35,234 nt of DNA, taken from positions 1 through 35,234 of the forward strand of contig JBHLME010000037.1 in NCBI GenBank assembly GCA_048938445.1, read 5' to 3'. Position 1 is the first letter of the stretch. Each line of letters starts with the position of its first letter. A program made the translations under genes and the position numbers. The notes beneath the pieces are model-generated. The model was not told where the DNA came from, made no database searches, and saw nothing but the letters and a program-made list of their open reading frames with translations. This document shows positions 846 through 22,118 of this stretch, one piece after another. This DNA is from Promethearchaeota archaeon. GTDB taxonomy: Archaea > Asgardarchaeota > Lokiarchaeia > Sigyniarchaeales > SOKP01.

Positions 846-1037
846 TTTAAAATTTACTTCTAATTATATTTTTATTATAATGATAATAATTATTATATCT
901 TGGTTTGGAAATTTATATTTTTTTTTTTAAACAGTAATAAAATAAAAAAGATTTTTATAAGATTTTATTCTATTATTTTTTAGTACTTGAGTTTAAATAA
1001 TATTTGATCATAATAAGAAAGGTTGTGAATATAGCCT

Positions 1038-1361
1038 ATTAAAGACGACGACATTTGTCCATTATGTAGTTTTCCAAAAGAGCTTTGTATTTGTAATAGT
1101 CTAAGTGCAGATGAACAACAAATAATAATATCTAATGATCGAAGAAAATGGGGTCGTATTGTCACGGTCATTACATTTGAGGGTAATTTTGATGCAAATC
1201 TTAAAGAAATTTTAACTGAAGCAAAAAGAAAATGTGCTTCGGGCGGAACTGTGAGAGGGAATGAAGTTGAACTTCAAGGTGATCATAAGTTTAAAATTAA
1301 AAGATTTTTAGTTGATTTAGGCTTTCCCGAAGAAAACATTACAATTAAAGAGACAATCTAA
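1038..1361 (+). CDS. sui1: Translation initiation factor aIF1/SUI1 (not in ORF track; probable ATT start)
   Basis: Manual translation: IKDDDICPLCSFPKELCICNSLSADEQQIIISNDRRKWGRIVTVITFEG...KRKCASGGTVRGNEVELQGDHKFKIKRFLVDLGFPEENITIKETI*. Has the archaeal N-terminal Zn knuckle and the SUI1 ELQGDH motif. In-frame TAG at 1032-1034. Confidence 0.92.
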   Translation: MKDDDICPLCSFPKELCICNSLSADEQQIIISNDRRKWGRIVTVITFEGNFDANLKEILTEAKRKCASGGTVRGNEVELQGDHKFKIKRFLVDLGFPEENITIKETI

Positions 1362-6024: not shown

Positions 6025-6549
6025 ATGGATATAAAAAACATTAATGGCTCTGAAATTGAGATTAAAATTGCTAAAAATGAAAGCATATATGATTTTAACT
6101 TATGTGCTAGTGACTTTATTGAATTTATTGATAATTTTGAAGAATTATTTTTAAATAAAAAATTGTTTATTCTCACTGCGTATTATCAAAAAACATTAGT
6201 TGGAATTGTGGTTGCAGAAGATAAAACCAAAAAAGTCGATTCTATTGAGAAAATCGTACCAATAATGATCTTGCATCTAATATATGTTAATCCAAATTAT
6301 AGAAATAGAAAAATTGGACAAAATTTATTAGTACATTTTATAACTATTCAAAAAAAGAATGGTATCGCTGCGATTCACTCTATTCTACCTCAAAAACATG
6401 TGATTGGTATAAATTTTCTTGAAAAAAATGATTTTTATCAAAAAGAAAGGAAAGGAAATAAAATTTTACTAGAATTAAAATTATGGAATGATTATGGCAT
6501 AGGAGATTGTCATATAATAGGCGATAATATAAATGATTTGTTAAGTTAG
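6025..6549 (+). CDS. GNAT family N-acetyltransferase
   Basis: Motif A IYVNPNYRNRKIG and motif B-like FLEKNDF. Confidence 0.75.
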   Translation: MDIKNINGSEIEIKIAKNESIYDFNLCASDFIEFIDNFEELFLNKKLFILTAYYQKTLVGIVVAEDKTKKVDSIEKIVPIMILHLIYVNPNYRNRKIGQNLLVHFITIQKKNGIAAIHSILPQKHVIGINFLEKNDFYQKERKGNKILLELKLWNDYGIGDCHIIGDNINDLLS

Positions 6550-6641
6550 AGGGAATCTCTTTTCTTATTATTAGATGAATCTCCACTTTCAAAAAATCAG
6601 AATAATAAAACTTATTTTAGAAAGAAGGATGTTATTATTTT

Positions 6642-7448
6642 ATGTCAACTAAACAAATTGGCTTGATTGGAATTGGTAACATGGGTACTGCTTTATTAAC
6701 TGGTGTTTTGAATTCAGAAATTGAGAAAAATGACAAAATAATCATTTATGATGTTAACCAAAAATTATTGGATGAGAAAGCAAAGGAATTTAACGTGGGT
6801 AAAGCTAAAAATAATGCTGAATTAGTTAAAGAATCCAAATATATTATACTAGCTATAAAACCACAAGTAATTGGAAGTGTATTGGAAGAAATTGCTCCTT
6901 TGATTAACGAAAATCATGTAGTTATATCTATTGCTGCAGGTGTTACCATAAAGAACATTCAAAAAATCATTGGAAAAAACGTGGGTATAACTAGGGTAAT
7001 GCCAAATACTCCTGCTTTAGTTGGTGAAGGCGCTTCTGTGATTGCTACTAATGGATTTATAAAAAATAACGATTTGGAATATGTTAAAAATATTTTTACC
7101 GCAGTAGGGATTGTTTTTGTCATGGATGAAAAATATATGGATGCAGTAACTGGATTGTCTGGAAGTGGTCCTGCATATATTTTTATTATCATTGAAGCTT
7201 TATCAGATGGAGGTGTAAAAATGGGTTTACCTCGTGATATCGCATTAAAACTTGCAGCTCAGACAGTATTAGGATCCGCTAAGATGTATTTAAAAACCGA
7301 AAAACATCCAGGAACATTGAAGGACATGGTGACTTCTCCTGGAGGCACTACAATTGCCGCACTCCATGAATTAGAGAAAGGAAAATTGAGATCAACTTTA
7401 ATAAGCGCTGTTGAAACTGCTACTCTAAAATCAAAATCACTAAATTAA
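6642..7448 (+). CDS. proC: Pyrroline-5-carboxylate reductase
   Basis: GIGNMG, LAIKPQ, SIAAG, RVMPNTP, TGLSGSGPAY, VTSPGGTT. Confidence 0.96.
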   Translation: MSTKQIGLIGIGNMGTALLTGVLNSEIEKNDKIIIYDVNQKLLDEKAKEFNVGKAKNNAELVKESKYIILAIKPQVIGSVLEEIAPLINENHVVISIAAGVTIKNIQKIIGKNVGITRVMPNTPALVGEGASVIATNGFIKNNDLEYVKNIFTAVGIVFVMDEKYMDAVTGLSGSGPAYIFIIIEALSDGGVKMGLPRDIALKLAAQTVLGSAKMYLKTEKHPGTLKDMVTSPGGTTIAALHELEKGKLRSTLISAVETATLKSKSLN

Positions 7449-7485
7449 ATAAAATAATAGTAATACTTTAATTAGGAGGAAAATA

Positions 7486-8193
7486 ATGGGAGAAAAGATT
7501 GTAATAAAAATTGGAGGTTCTCTGTTATTTAAAGATGATAATACAATTGATGTGGAAAAAATCACAGAAGTGTGTAAAGTACTCCAAAATAGAAAAAAAT
7601 TTGAATCAATTGTTATTATATGTGGAGGAGGTATAATTGCCAGAGATTACATTAATGTAGTCAGAGAATTTAGTGATAATGAAGCTTTATGCGATATAAT
7701 GGGAATTGAAGTATCAAGAATTAATTCAAAATTATTTATATCAAATTTAGGAGATGAAGCTTATCCTCAAGTTCCAAAAACTATAGAAGAGCTTTCTAAA
7801 GCAATGTTATTTAAAAAAATTATTATAATGGGAGGATTACAACCTGGGCAGTCTACAACATCTGTAGCAATTGAGGTTGCTGAATATATAAAAGCAAATA
7901 AAATCGTCATTCTTACGAATGTAGACGGTATTTATGATAAAGATCCTAAGAAATTCAAGGATGCGAAATTATTTAAAAACATTACTTATGACCAATTACA
8001 AGAATTAATTTTAAATTCTTCTGGAAATAATCAAGCTGCTGCTGGAGAATATAGAATTTTTGATACGGTTTCATTACAAATATTGAAACGATGTAATATT
8101 CCTCTTTTTTTAATGAATGGGAAGGATTTAACTGGATTTAAAAAGGTTTATGAGGGACAACAACACACAATTGGGACCCAGATTTCAAACTAG
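7486..8193 (+). CDS. pyrH: Archaeal UMP kinase
   Basis: KIGGS, GGGIIARDYI, GGLQPGQSTTSVA, TNVDGIYDKDP. Confidence 0.93.
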   Translation: MGEKIVIKIGGSLLFKDDNTIDVEKITEVCKVLQNRKKFESIVIICGGGIIARDYINVVREFSDNEALCDIMGIEVSRINSKLFISNLGDEAYPQVPKTIEELSKAMLFKKIIIMGGLQPGQSTTSVAIEVAEYIKANKIVILTNVDGIYDKDPKKFKDAKLFKNITYDQLQELILNSSGNNQAAAGEYRIFDTVSLQILKRCNIPLFLMNGKDLTGFKKVYEGQQHTIGTQISN

Positions 8194-8268
8194 TACGAGT
8201 CAATAAACTATTTTTATTATTACAGATTTAATATATCAAAATATAATCGAGTAAACTTGTAAAAAAAA

Positions 8269-8508
8269 ATGTCTCAATCTTCATGGAAAGATCAAATCAA
8301 ACAAAAATGGGGTCCTCACCTTCATTGTCCAATATGTGGAAAAGCAATGCCATCAGATAAAAAACTTTGCAGCCAAGCATGTAGAGATAATTATATAACT
8401 GCTGAAAAAAAACAAAAAAAGAAAGGTAGGTATCAAATGATTTTTCTCGTAGTAATGATGGTAGTAATGTTTATAGTCATGATATTTTTGCCAATGCTTG
8501 GTGGTTAA
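8269..8508 (+). CDS. DUF2116-type Zn-ribbon protein with C-terminal transmembrane helix
   Basis: PHLHCPICGKAMP..LCSQAC, basic stretch, hydrophobic C-terminal tail. Confidence 0.82.
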   Translation: MSQSSWKDQIKQKWGPHLHCPICGKAMPSDKKLCSQACRDNYITAEKKQKKKGRYQMIFLVVMMVVMFIVMIFLPMLGG

Positions 8509-8517
8509 GGAGGAAAA

Positions 8518-8669
8518 GCAGAGATAACCAAGCCAGGTCAAAGTACTAATGAACATATCAATGTTATGAATTAGTACGGCTATCGGTGTCGGACTCAAGA
8601 TCTTCTTTTTAAAAAAAATAAGACATCCGATCTCATAGGAGTACGGGGGTTCAAATCCCTCTCTCTGCA
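8518..8669 (+). tRNA. tRNA-Leu(CAA) with two introns (8542-8583 in D loop; 8600-8624 at 37/38)
   Basis: Acceptor GCAGAGA/TCTCTGC plus A; anticodon arm TCGGA-CT-CAA-GA-TCCGA after splicing; long variable arm CTCATAGGAG; T arm GGGGG-TTCAAAT-CCCTC. Confidence 0.9.
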
Positions 8670-8691
8670 TCTCTTATAAGATAAATCATCT

Positions 8692-9063
8692 CTAATTTTG
8701 ATTTTTATCTTTTATGACCTCATCTAAGATAGTGTTTAAAAATTGCGATAAGGGTTTTGCGATCTCATCTTCTTCATTAATATTTTTAAGAAAAAGGAGT
8801 GATAATACAGGGGCCTTAAGCATATTTGATGCCTTTTCGGCAATTATTTTACTTAATAATTTTTCTTTCATACCAAATAGGTTATATGATGCAGATGTTG
8901 AATTTAATCCTTCTATTGTTGGAGGACTGCTCAAGGTAACGTTCCCAATACCCATATTCTCTTGATCAGAAATAAGTAAGAGATAAGATTTATACATTTG
9001 AAAAAGTGATAAATAAATTATATGGTTATCATATGAAAAATTCTTTTTTTTTAATAGAATCAT
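8692..9063 (-). CDS. Hypothetical protein, possibly proteasome assembly chaperone 3/4 (PAC4-like) fold
   Basis: 123 aa; beta-rich N-terminus (YLLLISD..IGNVTLS), then LFG...SKIIAEKASNMLKAPVLSL, resembling the PSMG4 LLG..LAQRLARK..QVFVS pattern. Confidence 0.5.
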   Translation of the reverse strand: MILLKKKNFSYDNHIIYLSLFQMYKSYLLLISDQENMGIGNVTLSSPPTIEGLNSTSASYNLFGMKEKLLSKIIAEKASNMLKAPVLSLLFLKNINEEDEIAKPLSQFLNTILDEVIKDKNQN

Positions 9064-9098
9064 TTTTTTTTAAACATTATTATATATATAATATTTTA

Positions 9099-9902
9099 TT
9101 ACAACTTGGATTCTTTAATAGCTTCTTCTACCTCATAATCTTCATGTACTATTAAATATAAAGCTCTAACAACTTTAGAGGGATTATCTGCCTGAAATAC
9201 ATTTCTTCCATAGGCAACTCCAGCACCTCCTACTTCAAGAGATTGTTTAGTTATTTCCAAAATCCCTCTTATACCCGCTTTTTCTCCTCCTGCGATTATT
9301 ACTGGTGCCATACATCCTTCAACGACTTCTTTAAAAGAATCCGGATCTCCTGTCCAATTAGTTTTAACAATATCAACACCTAATTCTGCAGCAACACGTG
9401 CTGCTATTTTGACCACTTCTACATCATACTCATCTTTAATATTTTCTCCCCGTGGATACATCATTGCTAGTAATGGCATCCCATATTCCCTGCATTCTCG
9501 CGATACGGTACCTAAGGTTTCAAGCATTTCCGGATCTGATTTTGTACCTATATTTATATGCAAGGAAACGCCATCTGCTCCTAGTTTAACAGCCTCTAAC
9601 ACGGTATTGACCAAGACTTTATAGTTTGATTCAGGACTTAATGATGTTGAACCAGATAAGTGTATGATTAATCCTATATCTGGGCCATAACCCCTGTGAG
9701 CATAGAGGGGAATTCCAATATGGCCCAATACAGCATTAGCCCCTCCTAGAGCAATCTTATTTACTATTTCCCCCAAATCTTTATCTATGCCCTTAATAGG
9801 ACCGACAGTTAAACCATGATCCATCGGAACGATAATGGTCCTTTTATTTTCCCGGTTTATTATTCTCTCTAATCTAATTTGTTTCCCTATATAGCCCGAA
9901 AT
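9099..9902 (-). CDS. aroA': Class I aldolase (DhnA type), probably 2-amino-3,7-dideoxy-D-threo-hept-6-ulosonate synthase; true start upstream of the tracked ATG (probable ATT at 9902)
   Basis: PMDHG, GLIIHLSGSTSLSP, MMYPRG, ELGVDIVKT, IAGG, GRNVFQ. The conserved IGKQIRLERIINRENKRTIIVP reads in frame upstream of 9824; SD GAGGTG at 9915-9910. Confidence 0.85.
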   Translation of the reverse strand: MSGYIGKQIRLERIINRENKRTIIVPMDHGLTVGPIKGIDKDLGEIVNKIALGGANAVLGHIGIPLYAHRGYGPDIGLIIHLSGSTSLSPESNYKVLVNTVLEAVKLGADGVSLHINIGTKSDPEMLETLGTVSRECREYGMPLLAMMYPRGENIKDEYDVEVVKIAARVAAELGVDIVKTNWTGDPDSFKEVVEGCMAPVIIAGGEKAGIRGILEITKQSLEVGGAGVAYGRNVFQADNPSKVVRALYLIVHEDYEVEEAIKESKL

Positions 9903-9993
9903 ATATATACACCTCTTTAGTAAATACTTTTACTTCTATTCTTATTTTCAATTTTATTAATTTTAATGTTTCTTTGATTTTCATTATACCAAT

Positions 9994-11061
9994 TCATGAA
10001 GGAAAATATCCAGGAAATTCAAGACCCATCGTTTCTGGAAAATTACACATAAGATTCATACATTGAATAGCATTGCCTGCTGTTCCTTTGACCAAATTAT
10101 CAAGTGCACTTACGACTACTATTCGATTTATATTATCATCTAATTGAAATCCAACATCAACAAAGTTGGTTCCAATTATTATTTTAGGATCTGGCAATCG
10201 ATATATTCCTGTTTTTTGATTTATTAACCGCGTGAAAGGTTCGTCCTTAAAAGCGGTTCTATATGCTTTAAAAATTATTTTTTCATCAATATTCTTTGAT
10301 TCATCATAGAAAAGATGTGAAGTTGATAAAATTCCTCTTACAAGATTGACACCATGAGCAGAAAATCCAACTTTAACTTCATTGCCTTTATTCAATAATG
10401 TTAATTCTTGCTCAATTTCAGCAATGTGTCTATGTCCTGTCAATTTATATGGACGAATGCTATTTGCCCTAATAGGATGATGTGAAGCTTCGTTATGGCT
10501 AGCACCTGAACCTGAGGATCCTGTCTTGGAATCAATAATTATATTATTTACTTGAACTAATCCTTCTTTAATTAAGGGATATAATCCATAAATAGCACAA
10601 GCCGCTTGACAGCCTGCAACTGCGATTAAATTAGCTTTTTTTATTTCCTCCCTATGTAATTCTGGGATTCCGTATACTGCTTTATCAAGAAAAGCTGGGT
10701 TAACATGTTCTTTTTTATAATACTTTTTATATATCTCCTTATTTTTTATTCTAAAATCAGCACTCAGATCAATTACTTTTAATCCTACTTCGAGTAATTC
10801 TGGGACCATATCTTGTGAAACTTTATGTGGAACGGCTAAAAAAACAATATCGCATTTTTCTTTCGCTTTTTCAGTACTGAATTCTTCAAATTTAAGTTTA
10901 GAGATATTTCGAAAATTAGGATAAACAGAATGAAAATACTTTGTAATTAATTTGCGAGAAGTTACATAGTTTAAATTTACATTAGGATGAAAACTTAATA
11001 ACCTTACAGCTTCTCCTCCCGCATAACCAGTTGCTGCTATGACTCCTACATTCAATTCCAT
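9994..11061 (-). CDS. lysY: LysY/ArgC family [LysW]-aminoadipate/glutamate-phosphate reductase
   Basis: ATGYAGGE, IDLSADFR, YGIPE, AGC catalytic Cys, HHP.R..SIRPY..TGHRH.AE, RLPDPK..GTN, DNLVKGTAG (LysY-type signatures). ATG at 11061 preferred over TTG at 11070. Confidence 0.85.
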   Translation of the reverse strand: MELNVGVIAATGYAGGEAVRLLSFHPNVNLNYVTSRKLITKYFHSVYPNFRNISKLKFEEFSTEKAKEKCDIVFLAVPHKVSQDMVPELLEVGLKVIDLSADFRIKNKEIYKKYYKKEHVNPAFLDKAVYGIPELHREEIKKANLIAVAGCQAACAIYGLYPLIKEGLVQVNNIIIDSKTGSSGSGASHNEASHHPIRANSIRPYKLTGHRHIAEIEQELTLLNKGNEVKVGFSAHGVNLVRGILSTSHLFYDESKNIDEKIIFKAYRTAFKDEPFTRLINQKTGIYRLPDPKIIIGTNFVDVGFQLDDNINRIVVVSALDNLVKGTAGNAIQCMNLMCNFPETMGLEFPGYFPS

Positions 11062-11179
11062 ACAATTCAAAAATTTAAATAAAATTATAAAGTTATCTAT
11101 AAAAAATTAAGTTAAAATTATAGGAAAAAATATTTATCACTAATTTTATCACATTTTTTATACCTTACCTTACCTTAAA

Positions 11180-11803
11180 TTAAAGAGAATCCTTTGATTT
11201 ATCAGCTTGAATGAAGAAAGTTTTTGGGAATTTCATTGGAAAAATAATAAATAATAGATTAATACTTACTATTATTATCAAACAGATAAATACAAGAAAC
11301 AGAGTAAAGTCATTATTCAATAAATGAATAAATGTTAGATCTAGCATAAATATAATGCTAATTGCAGCAATAAGACAATTAAGTATCGCTAATTTCCACA
11401 AGGTTAACCGTGTAGACAACTTTTTTTGAAGTTCAATAGATATATCATAACCTTTTAATTGTTCGTAATTTTTAGTTAATTTTATCTTAAAAGATGAAAG
11501 ATTTTTTCTCCTCTTTTCAATAAAAGACCTTGGTAATCTATTTAATATTTCCTTTTTAATCTGTGCAATTTTTAAATTATCTGTCTTTTTTATATCTAAA
11601 TCAGTTATGAGGTTAAAAGACATACCTTTAAACTTTTCATCGATTATCTTCTCAACTTCTTTTGCGGTTATTTCATCCATCTCAATTGCGTTTGTTCCTT
11701 TCCAGATATAACCCGCGATACCGTCAATGATAAATACGATGTCCTCTTGAAATAATTTATTAGATAGGAGTAATCCATTATTTTTTATTTTATAAAATTC
11801 CAT
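11180..11803 (-). CDS. Putative gelsolin-like domain protein with two C-terminal transmembrane helices
   Basis: N-terminal FYKI...EDIVFIIDGIAGYIWKGTNA..DEITAKEVEKII fits the gelsolin-repeat pattern (D-x-FIxD..YxWxG-x-NA plus helix); two hydrophobic segments at about aa 137-161 and 166-189. Confidence 0.55.
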   Translation of the reverse strand: MEFYKIKNNGLLLSNKLFQEDIVFIIDGIAGYIWKGTNAIEMDEITAKEVEKIIDEKFKGMSFNLITDLDIKKTDNLKIAQIKKEILNRLPRSFIEKRRKNLSSFKIKLTKNYEQLKGYDISIELQKKLSTRLTLWKLAILNCLIAAISIIFMLDLTFIHLLNNDFTLFLVFICLIIIVSINLLFIIFPMKFPKTFFIQADKSKDSL

Positions 11804-11964
11804 TTATCTTTACTCCAATTTAAGTTATAATGTGTATTATTCGGATAAACATGTAATTAAATTTTACTAATTAGAACAAGAATATTTATCTTATCTAATA
11901 AAGATATAAAATCTCATGTTAATTTAATCCAAGTTTTAAAAAACCAAAAATATAATTAGAAAAT

Positions 11965-12600
11965 TTAGACTCCAAAAATCTGTCGTAATTCGCTATATAC
12001 TTGTGCTAGTGCTGAAATTATTTGAGCATTATTTTGATCTATATAATATTTGATATATCCTGCAAGGCCTTCACTGTCTTTTATCCAATCTAAAAAAGCT
12101 TGAATTTCTCCCTTTAATTGAGGATCCAAACTGCCACTACTTACAGAAGATCCTCCTGTTGAAGCTGAACCGCCCATCTGTTGGGCTTTTTGTCCTAATT
12201 GAGCAGTATCCTCCAAATATGTTCCTTTAGTACTCATGTCTCCTATTGTTCTTTGAACGTCCATTTGTGCACCTAATAAATTTCCATCTGGTTCTAAGTA
12301 GGCAATTAATCTTCTTTCTTCATCTTTTGCGCCAACTATGTGTCCTTCTCCCCGAATTGACGTTGCAGTAAATCCTTCTGGGGTTTGTGCAAGCATTGAA
12401 TATTTTACTCCAGAAATCATGATAAATTGAGCATTTAAAGAATTCCAACTAGACATGACTCTTCCAATATCAGGGGTAATGTCCCAGTTATCAGTAGAGT
12501 AAATAATATTGTTTCTAGGATCAATAACAGCTGCAGCAATAATGCTAGGATCTCGCTGCATCAAATTATATACCGCAGTTTCAGGATCTATACCAGGCAT
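11965..12600 (-). CDS. Asgard-type profilin with about 90-aa C-terminal extension
   Basis: IIYSTDNWD, ISGVKYSMLAQTPE, ATSIRGEGHIVG, LIAYLEPDG match recalled Loki/Odin profilin motifs (QTxNWD, GIKYSxLQxTPE, ATN..G.IVG, IAY..P.G). Confidence 0.85.
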   Translation of the reverse strand: MPGIDPETAVYNLMQRDPSIIAAAVIDPRNNIIYSTDNWDITPDIGRVMSSWNSLNAQFIMISGVKYSMLAQTPEGFTATSIRGEGHIVGAKDEERRLIAYLEPDGNLLGAQMDVQRTIGDMSTKGTYLEDTAQLGQKAQQMGGSASTGGSSVSSGSLDPQLKGEIQAFLDWIKDSEGLAGYIKYYIDQNNAQIISALAQVYSELRQIFGV

Positions 12601-12732
12601 ATTCTTACCTCATAAAAGTAATTATTATATTTTTTTATATTTTAATAACAAGATAACAACAATCTAATATTAATATAATTATAATAATCTTATAAAAAAT
12701 TTTTTAATACTCAAAATATATATAGCTTTAAT

Positions 12733-13188
12733 TTAAAATGAATCACTTTTTCTCTCTTTAACAGTAATTCTACCAAATTTTGGTCTATTTTTAAAAGGTT
12801 TTCTATTAATAATTCCTTGATTTTGTAAATAATGTTTAGATTCAAAAAAGAACTCGTGAAGATTATCACTCTTTTTTACTTGTTTTAAATGTTCTAATAC
12901 ACCACCTTCGGATTTAAACAATTTCCCACATGCGGGACAACTTGGTGATGCCTTTATTAAGATTTTATTCGGACTTTTAACTATAACAGGATATTTTTTC
13001 TTCTTATTTTTAGCTGTAATCCCCCGACAATAATGTTTTATCAATTTTCCATAAGGGGGATAATTAAAAAACAATTTACTCCCATGAGTACATTCCCAAT
13101 ATAATACTTCCGACCCACATTTCCTACAATTAGTTTTAAAAGAACGTAGATAGCAATGTTTTCCGTGTATTCTATAATTATGTCGCAT
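12733..13188 (-). CDS. Hypothetical zinc-finger protein (Zn ribbon plus C2H2-like finger)
   Basis: CRKCG..YWECTHG..HYC and CPACGKLF...LEHL. The ATG at 13188 is more plausible than 13260, whose upstream stretch is AT-rich promoter sequence. Confidence 0.65.
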   Translation of the reverse strand: MRHNYRIHGKHCYLRSFKTNCRKCGSEVLYWECTHGSKLFFNYPPYGKLIKHYCRGITAKNKKKKYPVIVKSPNKILIKASPSCPACGKLFKSEGGVLEHLKQVKKSDNLHEFFFESKHYLQNQGIINRKPFKNRPKFGRITVKERKSDSF

Positions 13189-13359
13189 CAAATAAATTAT
13201 TAAATTCATTCTATTAAAATTTTTCCTTATAATTTGAAAAAAAATAAAAAAATTATGCATTTTTTATTAATAGACAAATCTTTAAAACGCAAACATTTAA
13301 AAATGCTATTTTAATAATAGAAATTAAAGAACAGTAGTTTTATCTATAACTATGTAAAA

Positions 13360-14277
13360 ATGTCTCAAAATGATTTAAGTTATTGCATTGAATGTGGAAA
13401 TGAAAATTTAATTCATGATGAATCACGCGCCGAGCTGATTTGTGATGTATGTGGCTTAGTATTAAACCAAAAAATCATTGATTCTGGTCCAGAATGGCGA
13501 GCATTTTCTTCTGAAGAAGTTAATCGTAAAGTACGTGTTGGTGCTCCATCAACTCTAACACTACATGATAAAGGATTAAGTACTATGATTGGTTGGAAAA
13601 ATAAAGATGCTTTTGGGAAAAATATTAGTCCAAAAATGAAAGCCGAAGTTTATCGGTTAAGAAAATGGAATGTAAGAACAAGAACAAATAAATCGATTGA
13701 TAGGAATTTAGCATATGCTATGAATGAATTAGATCGCTTCTCTTCTCAAATGAATATTTCTAAAGATATTAAAGAATCTGCGGCTTATATTTACAGAAAA
13801 ATGGCAAATAAAAATCTTATTAGAGGGCGATCAATAGAAGCGATGTTAACAGCATCAATTTATCTTTCTTGCAGGCTTAATCACGTTCCTAAAACATTAG
13901 ATGATTTTTTAGAGTTTGCATCTGTAGATAAAAAAAAAATCGCTCGATGTTATAGATTGATATTACAAGAACTAAAAATGACTATTAAGGTATCATCTCC
14001 AACTAATTTTGTACCAAGATTTTGTGCTGAATTAAACTTATCTGGAAGAACTCAAAATCGAGCAGCTCTGATCTTAGAATTAGCAAAAAAGTCAAGAATT
14101 ACTGCAGGAAAAGCTCCAACAGGATTAGCTGGAGCGGCATTGTATGTTGCAGCCATCCAAGAAGGAGAAAGAAGAACACAAAAAGAAATTTCCATAGCAG
14201 CGGGAGTAACGGAAGCCACCATTCGAAATCGATATAAAGAACTAATGAAGAATTTAAATTTTCAATTAAACATTTGA
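13360..14277 (+). CDS. tfb: Transcription initiation factor IIB (TFB)
   Basis: Zn ribbon CIEC..CDVCG, B-reader IDSGPEWRAF, LHDKGLST, cyclin repeats RGRS and GKAPTG, GVTEATIRNRYKEL. Confidence 0.97.
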   Translation: MSQNDLSYCIECGNENLIHDESRAELICDVCGLVLNQKIIDSGPEWRAFSSEEVNRKVRVGAPSTLTLHDKGLSTMIGWKNKDAFGKNISPKMKAEVYRLRKWNVRTRTNKSIDRNLAYAMNELDRFSSQMNISKDIKESAAYIYRKMANKNLIRGRSIEAMLTASIYLSCRLNHVPKTLDDFLEFASVDKKKIARCYRLILQELKMTIKVSSPTNFVPRFCAELNLSGRTQNRAALILELAKKSRITAGKAPTGLAGAALYVAAIQEGERRTQKEISIAAGVTEATIRNRYKELMKNLNFQLNI

Positions 14278-14317
14278 AAATAACTATTATATTTAGAATA
14301 AAAAAAAGTTACTTACC

Positions 14318-14467
14318 TTAACGAACTTTTAAGCGCTTAATTATTTCAGGTCGTTTTTTATATAGGATTCTAAATCCACAGTGGCTACATTTAATGCCTG
14401 GAAGGGCATTTAATTCCTTTTTAGATACTTCTTTTCCACAACTTTTTCTCGCGCATACATAGCTCAT
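14318..14467 (-). CDS. rpoP: DNA-directed RNA polymerase subunit Rpo12/RpoP (49 aa, below ORF-track cutoff)
   Basis: Manual translation MSYVCARKSCGKEVSKKELNALPGIKCSHCGFRILYKKRPEIIKRLKVR*; has the CxxCG.RILYK.RP signature. Confidence 0.93.
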   Translation of the reverse strand: MSYVCARKSCGKEVSKKELNALPGIKCSHCGFRILYKKRPEIIKRLKVR

Positions 14468-14532
14468 AATATCTAATAAATATAACATCGTTAAAATATT
14501 TTATCTAAAAATAAGAGATAAATAAAGTAAAA

Positions 14533-15360
14533 TTAAATATATAATGATTTTCTTTTATCTTCTGCATCAGAAGAAACTAGTTGAAAAGTATCAAGGTCTT
14601 TTTCTAGCTGATCTCTTTTGGTTTGAAGACTTTTTGTAATACTATCTAAATTATCAAGAGAATATTTTTTCTTGATAGGCAATGCAAACGATTTTTTAAG
14701 CATCTCTAGTAAAGTTATGGATGCTCTTAAATCAGTAATGTCTTCATTAATCATGGCAACATTATCAGTTTCAGCAAGAAAAACAATTCCTTCAATCCCA
14801 AATCTTGCTTTTGCTAGCGTTGGTATGAGTCCATTAGCACCGATTATTACACCTTTTTGAATTTTTTCACAATTTTCATTTAAAATGAATTTTTCTAACA
14901 TTTCTCTATTGGTTGAACTAGTAAAAATTTTTGGTATTTTTGAAATCATTTTCCTAGTTGATACTGGATATGCTCCAAGTGCAATAACCAATGTTATTCC
15001 AAGTTCTTTAAGAATTGAAGTTATGAAAAAAGATATTCTATATATTCCTTTAGGGGTTAATGATTGAGCATCAGCAGTTATTAAAACTATATCTTTCAAT
15101 TGGTCGGGATCTTTCCAAATTAATATCTCAGCTTTAGGTGCGGAAAGAATGCTATCATCCACGATAGCTCCTGCGGGATAGTCATCAAATATAATATCCA
15201 TGTAGCTCTTGGCATTAAGTTGACCTATTAGCGAATCTAAAGCAAATTTTCCAACATCTGCAATGCCAGGCATTCCTAATATGCAAATGGGATTAATAAA
15301 ATCGGTTTTATTAAAATCGGTGTGTTTTATTATTCTAATCCCATCATCATCATCTATCAT
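14533..15360 (-). CDS. PAC2 family proteasome assembly chaperone (PbaA/PbaB-like)
   Basis: GMPGIADVGK, ITADAQ, IALGAY, GVIIGANGLI, C-terminal SLYI. Confidence 0.85.
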   Translation of the reverse strand: MIDDDDGIRIIKHTDFNKTDFINPICILGMPGIADVGKFALDSLIGQLNAKSYMDIIFDDYPAGAIVDDSILSAPKAEILIWKDPDQLKDIVLITADAQSLTPKGIYRISFFITSILKELGITLVIALGAYPVSTRKMISKIPKIFTSSTNREMLEKFILNENCEKIQKGVIIGANGLIPTLAKARFGIEGIVFLAETDNVAMINEDITDLRASITLLEMLKKSFALPIKKKYSLDNLDSITKSLQTKRDQLEKDLDTFQLVSSDAEDKRKSLYI

Positions 15361-21471: not shown

Positions 21472-22032
21472 TTAAAACTCTGGTTTGTATAGCTGTTTAA
21501 ATTCTTCTTTCTTTTTTTCGTTATATTTATTATCTAAATACTTTAATACCGTGTGATGGGGCATTCCATTAATTAACATACTAATTGCTTTTCGACCAAC
21601 TTGTAAATTTTCGTAATTCCCGATAATTGCCACGTTCTTTCCATAAACTGAAATAAGACATTCTGAATATCTTTCAATTGATTTACGCATTTCTCCATTT
21701 CTTCCTATTATTCTCCCCTTAATCCTCTTTATTCGATTTTCGGATTTACCTAATATTATCATGAGATTAAATATTTCAAGATCATGGTCTTCATCCAACA
21801 GTAACATTGCTTTTTGAGGATTAAAACCTCTATTAATTGCTGAAATAATTTTTTGTGCTGTAAGCACGTTCAAAGGATTATAATTAGCATCATTTAAGCT
21901 TGGAATAACTTCACAATCACCTGTTTTGCTATTTAGATCTATTTTTACTCCAAGTTTCTTCTCAATTTCTTCTTTGGTTTGCCCATTTTTTCCAATTACA
22001 ACAGCTATCCTAGCTTTTTGAATTTTAAACAA
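21472..22032 (-). CDS. KH-domain rRNA-processing protein (Dim2/Pno1/Krr1 family)
   Basis: RIAVVIGKNG, AINRGF.P..A, RIKGRIIGRNG, ISVYGK; follows rio1. Confidence 0.92.
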   Translation of the reverse strand: MFKIQKARIAVVIGKNGQTKEEIEKKLGVKIDLNSKTGDCEVIPSLNDANYNPLNVLTAQKIISAINRGFNPQKAMLLLDEDHDLEIFNLMIILGKSENRIKRIKGRIIGRNGEMRKSIERYSECLISVYGKNVAIIGNYENLQVGRKAISMLINGMPHHTVLKYLDNKYNEKKKEEFKQLYKPEF

Positions 22033-22118
22033 TACTATTCTTTCTCTTTTTACAATTTGTACTATTTTAATTTCTTTTTTTATTAAAATATTTAATTATT
22101 TGTCTTTTATCTCTTTTT

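Follow-up and report, generated by a model that had tools for sequence, protein, structure and literature searches.

A gene on the minus strand of contig JBHLME010000037.1, from a Promethearchaeota archaeon of the Sigyniarchaeales (Lokiarchaeia; GenBank assembly GCA_048938445.1), raises the question of where its translation begins. The window, by which we mean the whole stretch of 35,234 nucleotides that was analysed, holds an open frame for an AroA'-type class I aldolase in which no ATG, GTG or TTG occurs from the in-frame TAA at 9932-9930 to an ATG at 9824, as seen both in the sequence and in the list of open reading frames (ORFs). A sequence-only reading of this DNA had proposed that the gene starts at ATT 9902 behind a Shine-Dalgarno (SD) sequence, and that initiation of this kind may be more general in the genome. 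Our comparisons lead to the same codon: ATT 9902 behind GAGGTG is very probably the start codon of the aldolase, and its product would, with similar confidence, begin Met-Ser-Gly-Tyr-Ile-Gly-Lys and be 267 residues long. The elements concerned are the following.

9099..9902, minus strand: coding sequence of the AroA'-type class I aldolase (ADH-synthase type), 267 codons from ATT 9902 to the TAA at 9101-9099
9900..9902, minus strand: putative initiation codon ATT, the sole codon at SD spacing
9910..9915, minus strand: Shine-Dalgarno sequence GAGGTG, followed by a 7-nt spacer (9903-9909)
9930..9932, minus strand: in-frame TAA that closes the frame upstream
9822..9824, minus strand: internal ATG (Met residue 27), the first in-frame ATG, judged not to be the start

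When the minus strand was read again, the coordinates and letters previously given for this start were all correct. The strand reads TAA (9932-9930) AAG TAT TTA CTA AAG AGG TGT ATA TAT ATT (9902-9900) TCG GGC TAT ATA GGG AAA CAA, and at the internal Met it reads GTT CCG ATG (9824-9822) GAT CAT GGT. The translation after the TAA is K Y L L K R C I Y I S G Y I G K Q I R L E R I I N R E N K R T I I V P M D H G. The only start candidates between the TAA and 9824 are indeed ATA and ATT: the codons of the ATH type (ATT, ATC or ATA) in this leader are ATA 9908, ATT 9902 and ATA 9890, followed by further internal Ile codons. GAGGTG does lie 7 nt before ATT 9902, and it is a perfect 6-mer match to the anti-SD, since the 16S rRNA 3' end in this assembly (contig C110) is ...GGATCACCTCCT. 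The SD was calibrated on 1760 genes whose first ATG falls within 8 codons after the upstream stop. These genes show an excess of G at -14 to -8; counted from the G of GGTG, their start most often lies 7 nt away, and an SD match of at least 6 nt is found in only 72 of the 1760. The aldolase ATT therefore follows an SD in the top 4%, at the optimal spacing.

By its profile scores, the window protein is a class I aldolase of the type of AroA', the 2-amino-3,7-dideoxy-D-threo-hept-6-ulosonate (ADH) synthase of the pathway to the aromatic amino acids. It scored 372.6 bits against NCBIfam NF005556 (cut-off 241) and 335.2 bits against TIGR01949 (ADH synthase), passing the equivalog cut-off of 299.45; profile position 4 of the former and position 1 of the latter both fall on residue 14 of the 276-codon open frame, which is the fifth codon past ATT 9902. 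The statement that a family-conserved N-terminus precedes the Met at 9824 was thus borne out. The Pfam DeoC domain (PF01791, the DeoC/LacD class I aldolase fold) scored 194.5 bits against a gathering threshold of 23.8 and begins 5 residues ahead of Met 9824, and the nearest solved structure, MJ0400 (2qjg_A), aligns residues 5-265 of the ATT-started protein with chain residues 10-270 (E 3.6e-91). Because the family profiles and the MJ0400 chain cover them, the 22 residues before Met 9824 belong to the folded family protein. It had been claimed that a start at 9824 would delete the first strand of the barrel; the residues lost do lie within the family fold according to DeoC and MJ0400, and that they include the first strand itself would be an extrapolation from the fold. 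An AlphaFold2 model, made with 16 close homologues, was of low quality (mean pLDDT 55, with the N-terminus below 50), so strands were not assignable from it and it was not used. A public protein collection contains a 267-aa protein beginning MSGYIGKQ, the same as the window protein but for its first residue, and the NCBI records of orthologs of the ATT type are also 267 aa long, while the proteins in other records have been shortened to 253, 257 or 260 aa. Some annotation source must therefore already call such starts.

The orthologs strongly support this placement and, in our view, settle the aldolase start, for the homologous codon switches among ATT, ATA, ATG and TTG. In a first set of 21 loci from related genomes, the codon before Ser-Gly-Tyr (S-G-Y) was ATT in 8 and ATG in 13. 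A larger, overlapping set of 39 loci (38 with at least 83% identity, plus the window) supplied the comparison of orthologous start codons that the sequence-only reading had proposed: before the conserved SGY-I/Y-GK the codon was ATT in 21, ATA in 1, ATG in 10 and TTG in 7, and all 39 are either AUG or one base away from it. The Ser, Gly and Tyr codons that follow differ synonymously among the orthologs, and such variation indicates that they are translated. In ten loci (L060-62, L064-68, L070 and L071), which read ggtga(a/t/g) TAA ACT/TCG ATT TCT, an in-frame stop stands one codon ahead of the ATT, and L043 reads TGA GGC TAT ATT, so that its frame opens three codons before the ATT. More distant orthologs, from Bathyarchaeota-labelled metagenome-assembled genomes, methanogens and deltaproteobacteria, mostly have ATG; a few (L073, L074 and L076) have GTG or TTG.

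Among the other ways to start this gene, the best surviving is a different non-canonical codon, ATA 9908 or ATA 9890, and even this is very improbable. ATA does serve as a start elsewhere in this genome. However, ATA 9908 lies 1 nt past the SD, is replaced in orthologs by TTT, ATC, GGC, TTA or AAT, and would be beyond the stop in the ten loci above, while ATA 9890 is 19 nt away from the SD, is replaced by TAT in L039, and is preceded by the S-G-Y codons that evolve synonymously. Slightly less probable again is translation from ATG 9824, which would give a 241-residue protein and leave the upstream frame as an untranslated leader. This ATG is the first canonical start, and the gene calls of some public orthologs, those cut to 253, 257 and 260 aa, likewise begin at internal ATGs. 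Against it, the 26 codons before ATG 9824 are conserved at the protein level across Asgard archaea, methanogens and bacteria and match the family profiles from positions 1-4 onward and chain residues 10-35 of MJ0400; the Met codon itself is ATA or TTA (Ile or Leu) in 5 of the 21 orthologs of the first set (L004, L016, L017, L018 and L019); and inspection of the sequence ahead of 9824 found no SD. A sequencing or assembly error that hides an ATG at 9902 or 9908, which the sequence-only reading had named as a refuting outcome, or a decaying pseudogene, is close to refuted: the Logan contigs of four runs from two studies have 0 differences over 9737-9989 (the assembly may derive from one of these runs, and rare variants do not show in contigs), ATT stands at the same codon in 21 independent assemblies, and the aldolase frame is intact and scores above curated cut-offs.

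With ATT 9902 as the preferred start of the aldolase, the next question is whether such starts are used by other genes. The assembly (4.63 Mb in 256 contigs, 29.6% G+C) was scanned as 4874 stop-to-stop frames of at least 100 codons. A candidate codon had to be in frame, 5-9 nt after the G of GGTG within an SD match of at least 5 nt, no more than 25 codons from the upstream stop and without a canonical start upstream in frame; non-canonical candidates additionally had no canonical start within the next 8 codons. The counts by codon were as follows.

SD match of at least 5 nt: ATG 312, TTG 88, ATT 45, ATA 35, AAA 25, GTG 21, TTA 20, TTT 16, TAT 12, AAT 11, ATC 9
SD match of at least 6 nt: ATG 90, TTG 33, ATT 18, ATA 18, AAA 10, GTG 8

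ATT and ATA together made up 80 of the 373 non-canonical candidates, compared with 8.8% expected from SD-anchored positions deep within ORFs, which is an enrichment of about 2.4-fold (binomial p 8.5e-14). Five control codons composed of A and T only, with 11-25 candidates each at an SD of at least 5 nt, stood at their expectation (83/373 vs 23.2%, p 0.71). The ratio of ATT plus ATA to ATG also doubled with SD strength, from 44:222 at 5 nt to 36:90 at longer matches (p 0.005). The excess over the control level comes to about 45-50 genes, and it is a minimum, since genes with a weaker SD, such as sui1, escaped the scan. Earlier, broader scans, which accepted SD-like 5-mers as deep as 60 codons inside ORFs, gave mainly noise: ATT and ATA were only 1.3-1.4-fold enriched, and codons adjoining a true ATG inflated the ATA, ATT and AAA counts. 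They were replaced by the one described here. Several non-ATH candidates turned out to be the codon beside an ATT or ATA (AAA at C83, AAC at C135 and ACT at C171).

Homology was used to validate the candidates. An unbiased set consisted of all 71 ORFs whose non-canonical candidate follows an SD of at least 6 nt; in a Pfam scan, 34 of them had a family. In 15 of the 34 the Pfam domain begins before the first ATG, GTG or TTG, and 13 of these 15 have an ATH codon at the SD position. The codon is ATT in seven, namely an Arf/Roc GTPase (contig C5), a Roc GTPase (C30, where validation is marginal, at 2 residues only), a LysW-type amino-acid kinase (C83), aroA' itself, ribosomal protein uS10 (C135), a PanE-like reductase (C221) and an ABC-2 permease (C242). 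It is ATA in five, which are an ABC ATPase (C51), CobS (C108), a Thr-tRNA editing domain (C109), a winged-helix regulator (C137) and FumB (C243), and ATC in one, TFE (C111). A further nine candidates with a 5-nt SD were chosen by eye and so are not an unbiased set; seven of the nine were validated by the start of a Pfam domain, four with ATT (an RmlA-like enzyme, DnaJ, a MinD/CbiA ATPase and PadR) and three with ATA (the HMA domain of CopA, a response regulator and TauE).

Full-length NCBIfam models begin 1-4 residues from the proposed codon. In uS10, residues 2-100 align with profile positions 1-99 of 99. For the other proteins, the first aligned residue and profile position are 2 to 1 in RmlA, 4 to 3 in FumB, 5 to 2 in the LysW-type kinase, 2 to 2 in the Thr-tRNA editing domain, 1-2 to 1 in PanE, 4 to 3 in a flavodiiron protein and 4 to 2 in aIF1.

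The window itself can serve as an unselected sample. From its 53 frames of at least 90 codons, 40 were scanned, the 13 dropped being short and mostly overlapping a longer frame; 29 of the 40 had a Pfam family, and in two of the 29 (sui1 and aroA') the domain begins before the first canonical codon. A KH protein at 21475-22095 was borderline in this respect.

The codon also varies in the orthologs of other genes found in this way. At uS10, the codon before Q-K-A-R-I-R-L in 30 loci is ATA in 9, ATG in 7, GTG in 6, ATT in 3, TCG in 2, and TTG, ACA and GTT in 1 each, and within the genus of the window two genomes have ATT and three have ATA. DnaJ has ATT in two and ATA in one of three genomes of the genus, with ATG before S-S/T-x-K-R-D-Y-Y in nearly all others. 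For FumB, the window genome and one genus-mate have ATA, a second genus-mate has ATC, and ATA recurs in a single further genus, the remaining loci having ATG.

TFE deserves a separate mention, as its frame (C111:11785-12309, plus strand, with a TFIIE-alpha domain) has no ATG, GTG or TTG for more than 130 codons. Its leader reads AGGAGGAG and then GCA ATC, pointing to an ATC start; in the NCBIfam alignment the N-terminus stays uncertain.

From the scan and its validation, it is strongly supported that ATT/ATA initiation extends to dozens of genes in this genome. In 20 genes, uS10, DnaJ, a CopA-type ATPase and aIF1 among them, a Pfam domain starts ahead of the first ATG, GTG or TTG. The earlier statement that SD-assisted AUU initiation is used in the genome is upheld by the ortholog interchange and by the scan backed with Pfam and NCBIfam, and the scan that had been suggested, for homology upstream of the first NTG together with an SD and ATH, gave 13 of the 15 unbiased cases above. 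ATT is widespread, as that reading had proposed; that ATA is used about as often had been missed.

Several points weigh against the reading of ATT 9902 as the aldolase start and of ATT/ATA as regular starts in this genome. In favour of the reading, SDs are stronger in ATT and ATA orthologs of the aldolase (mean longest match 5.6 nt, spacing 6-8 in 22/22) than in ATG orthologs (3.5 nt; p 0.0003), but the ortholog counts and Mann-Whitney p values overstate the support, because related genomes are not independent. In some aldolase orthologs an in-frame canonical alternative occurs near the SD (TTG in L004/L035 and L005; GTG in L011/L053, L054 and L069); each of these codons overlaps the SD or lies right next to it, and the orthologs do not have them in common. 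No RNA run in the run listing was found to hold the aldolase stretch. The genome-wide excess depends on a simple k-mer filter for the SD, and some of the ATT/ATA candidates are noise. In the homology test, the SD position holds no ATH or NTG codon in 2 of the 15 validated genes (DUF166 on C44 and MetX on C137), and 10 of the 22 Pfam-annotated ATT/ATA candidates with an SD of at least 6 nt were uninformative, their domains beginning past the first canonical codon. The rule also has exceptions: two uS10 loci (L242 and L243, in genomes G012 and G022) have TCG at SD spacing in an open frame devoid of ATG, GTG or TTG, and the sole ATH there, an ATT, is 15 codons further upstream and has no SD. Lastly, no initiator tRNA was found with aragorn (run with and without introns), with an anticodon-arm pattern or among 50 Rfam tRNA hits; the tRNA set of the assembly is incomplete, which makes this miss uninformative on the mechanism.

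The only tRNA-Met(CAT) that was found sits in an array on C215 (~6484-15106), adjoining tRNA-Ile(GAT) and tRNA-Ile(TAT). This single 21-kb contig has about 28 tRNA genes (Rfam RF00005), compared with about 22 tRNAs in the rest of the assembly, and the cluster could be a viral or mobile tRNA array, or the contig a contaminant.

The anatomy of the aldolase ATT start, its conservation and its interchange with other codons can be read directly from the genomes, and they could be explained as follows. The 3' end of the 16S rRNA would pair with GAGGUG and place the AUU, 7 nt downstream, in the P site, where the initiator Met-tRNA would be accepted despite the mismatch at the third position. AUU, AUA and occasionally AUC would then be ordinary, probably weaker, starts in this Loki-type Asgard family when preceded by a strong SD, and over evolutionary time they would interchange with AUG, UUG and GUG. 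Likely drivers are the strong A+T pressure on the third base of ATG, at 29.6% G+C, and a tolerant proofreading of the start codon, with the strength of the SD compensating for the loss of the third base of ATG. Taken further, the family may run initiation with relaxed third-position stringency, such that several per cent of its genes (uS10, DnaJ and TFE among them) would routinely start on AUU, AUA or sometimes AUC after a strong SD, while aIF1 is kept on a non-AUG start and an infC- or eIF1-like loop sets the stringency for the AUH-started set. We offer this fuller proposal tentatively, with a little less than even confidence.

The gene for aIF1 is also in the window, and it bears on the main alternative to tolerated drift.

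1038..1361, plus strand: sui1 (aIF1), Pfam SUI1, putative start ATT 1038

There is no ATG, GTG or TTG ahead of the zinc ribbon in this window gene, and the protein scored 107 bits on NCBIfam NF002096 (cut-off 98), with residues 4-103 aligned to profile positions 2-101. In 23 loci of the family the aIF1 start is ATT in 20, ATC in 2 and ATA in 1, while sister families have TTG or ATA, and an in-frame ATG before the zinc ribbon is absent from 29 of the 30 loci of the order. An upstream element, AAAGGTTGTGA (window 1019-1029), is conserved across the family; it is an imperfect SD with an in-frame TGA inside, and this TGA closes the aIF1 frame in most of the 23 family loci. A second SUI1 paralogue in the genome (C95:28-333, minus strand) likewise has no canonical start ahead of its zinc ribbon.

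The sequence-only reading had suggested, from sui1 and aroA', a set of genes whose output depends on the level of aIF1, and mechanistically this is a reasonable proposal. It would make the ATT/ATA starts a regulon, in which aIF1 rejects AUU, the genes rise as aIF1 falls, and the AUU start of aIF1 itself closes a negative feedback, as in bacterial IF3. In the published experiments on Sulfolobus, aIF1 is described as making the 30S complex reject AUU mRNA in vitro, and feedback loops of infC and eIF1 are described in the same articles (PMC4705826, PMC6237735). The non-AUG start of aIF1 is nearly invariant across the order, far steadier than the starts of aroA', uS10 and DnaJ, as would be expected of an infC- or eIF1-like feedback device, and the second SUI1 paralogue shares the lack of a canonical start. 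However, the start codon differs between genus-mates in aroA', uS10, DnaJ and FumB, and the ATT/ATA gene set is functionally miscellaneous; on these two grounds, drift under relaxed stringency fits better than a selected regulon. For aroA' alone, the flips of the codon among close relatives fit tolerated drift as well as they fit regulation, and a codon that flips in this way argues that the ATT is tolerated rather than selected. We hold a regulon set by aIF1 to be possible, on the doubtful side.

Starts of the ATT, ATC and ATA type are third-position near-cognates of AUG that are read by the initiator tRNA. NCBI table 11 lists all three as rare starts, animal mitochondria use AUA and AUU, and well-studied bacteria have a handful of genes per genome that start in this way. 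SD-led near-cognate initiation is known; what appears to be new here, as supported by the comparison of genomes, is its lineage-wide use, including that of AUA. For archaeal starts, a review of initiation lists just AUG, GUG and UUG (PMC7531240). A literature search, which covered few subscription journals, turned up no systematic account of AUU or AUA initiation in archaea, Asgard archaea included, and only a remark in the Methods of a study on the Kariarchaeaceae tubulin AtubA, which "likely" uses "a rare ATT start codon" (PMC13394414). That case resembles ours in that the deposited Asgard protein lacked its first beta strand and an ATT, plausibly spaced from a ribosome-binding site, restores the conserved N-terminus. 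It differs in being a single, anecdotal case from another Asgard class, called rare, and it comes with no census or ortholog comparison.

The classical parallel is infC of Escherichia coli, the gene for IF3, described as having an SD-led AUU start with autoregulation (PMC4705826). The aldolase shares several features of such a start, namely no canonical start from the upstream in-frame stop to the conserved N-terminus, an SD that matches its own 16S rRNA at functional spacing, and a canonical start in orthologs (ATG 10, TTG 7). As with infC, a near-cognate AUU stands behind an SD, and the gene of the fidelity factor itself, here aIF1 with ATT, ATC, ATA or TTG, has a weak start. Unlike infC, which is a bacterial single-gene device whose IF3 is unrelated to aIF1, the starts found here belong to dozens of unrelated genes, their codon flips, and a feedback would be hypothetical. 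Eukaryotic eIF1, described in the same article as having a poor-context AUG with autoregulation (PMC4705826), is a homologue of aIF1 and shares with it a weak initiation signal on the mRNA of the proofreading factor; from that description, the weakness of eIF1 lies in the Kozak context rather than in the codon, and it works via scanning.

Gene finders that are limited to ATG, GTG and TTG would cut a noticeable share of Asgard proteins short, because the starts of these are ATT or ATA. Trimming of the N-terminus can mislead structure prediction, expression constructs and domain annotation, and the published remark on AtubA points to the same effect. Eukaryotes are stricter in their choice of start codon, and Loki-type Asgard archaea are close to the eukaryotic ancestor. 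A free use of AUU and AUA near the eukaryotic root, even for a ribosomal protein and with an eIF1 homologue that itself would start on a non-AUG codon, could therefore provide a natural system in which to ask how start-codon stringency is set and how autoregulation of the eIF1 type arose.

The aldolase has an argC-type gene and unrelated genes as its neighbours.

9994..11070, minus strand: argC-type semialdehyde dehydrogenase, the upstream neighbour, with Pfam Semialdhyde_dh and dimerisation domain

Its stop lies 91 nt from ATT 9902, a gap too long for stop-start coupling to argC, which was ruled out. A frameshift from an upstream ORF was ruled out as well, as there is no upstream frame started by ATG and nothing of the sort is conserved.

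A second ADH-synthase-type paralogue is encoded elsewhere in the genome (C175:12183-12980, minus strand). It is 60% identical to the window protein, scored 353.7 bits on TIGR01949 and has a TTG start. The window aldolase aligns with MJ0400 of Methanocaldococcus jannaschii (PDB 2qjg, 2qjh and 2qji) over nearly its full length, and the case differs from that of MJ0400 in that this genome has a second paralogue above the TIGR01949 cut-off. Either of the two could be the ADH-making copy that serves aromatic biosynthesis, and either might instead be a fructose-bisphosphate aldolase.

The MetX frame (C137:1014-2129, minus strand; NF001209, 482.6 bits) has no canonical start for 75 codons. It reads TGA ATT AAA TTA, with an ATT directly past the stop and an SD that overlaps the stop. 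In the DUF166 gene (C44:11514-12221, minus strand), homology extends upstream of every listed candidate.

Two ATT/ATA candidates with a 5-nt SD, at C117:2148 and C20:4732, were rejected as starts, since they lie in contexts where an in-frame TGA is read through. Just upstream of 2148 on C117 (plus strand) and of 5274 on C20 (minus strand) are paralogues with an in-frame TGA in the context Cys-x-TGA-Gly, and the frame runs on both sides of it. Selenocysteine is the probable meaning of these TGAs; judged from the translation alone, the paralogues resemble iron-sulfur proteins of the MvhD/HdrA type.

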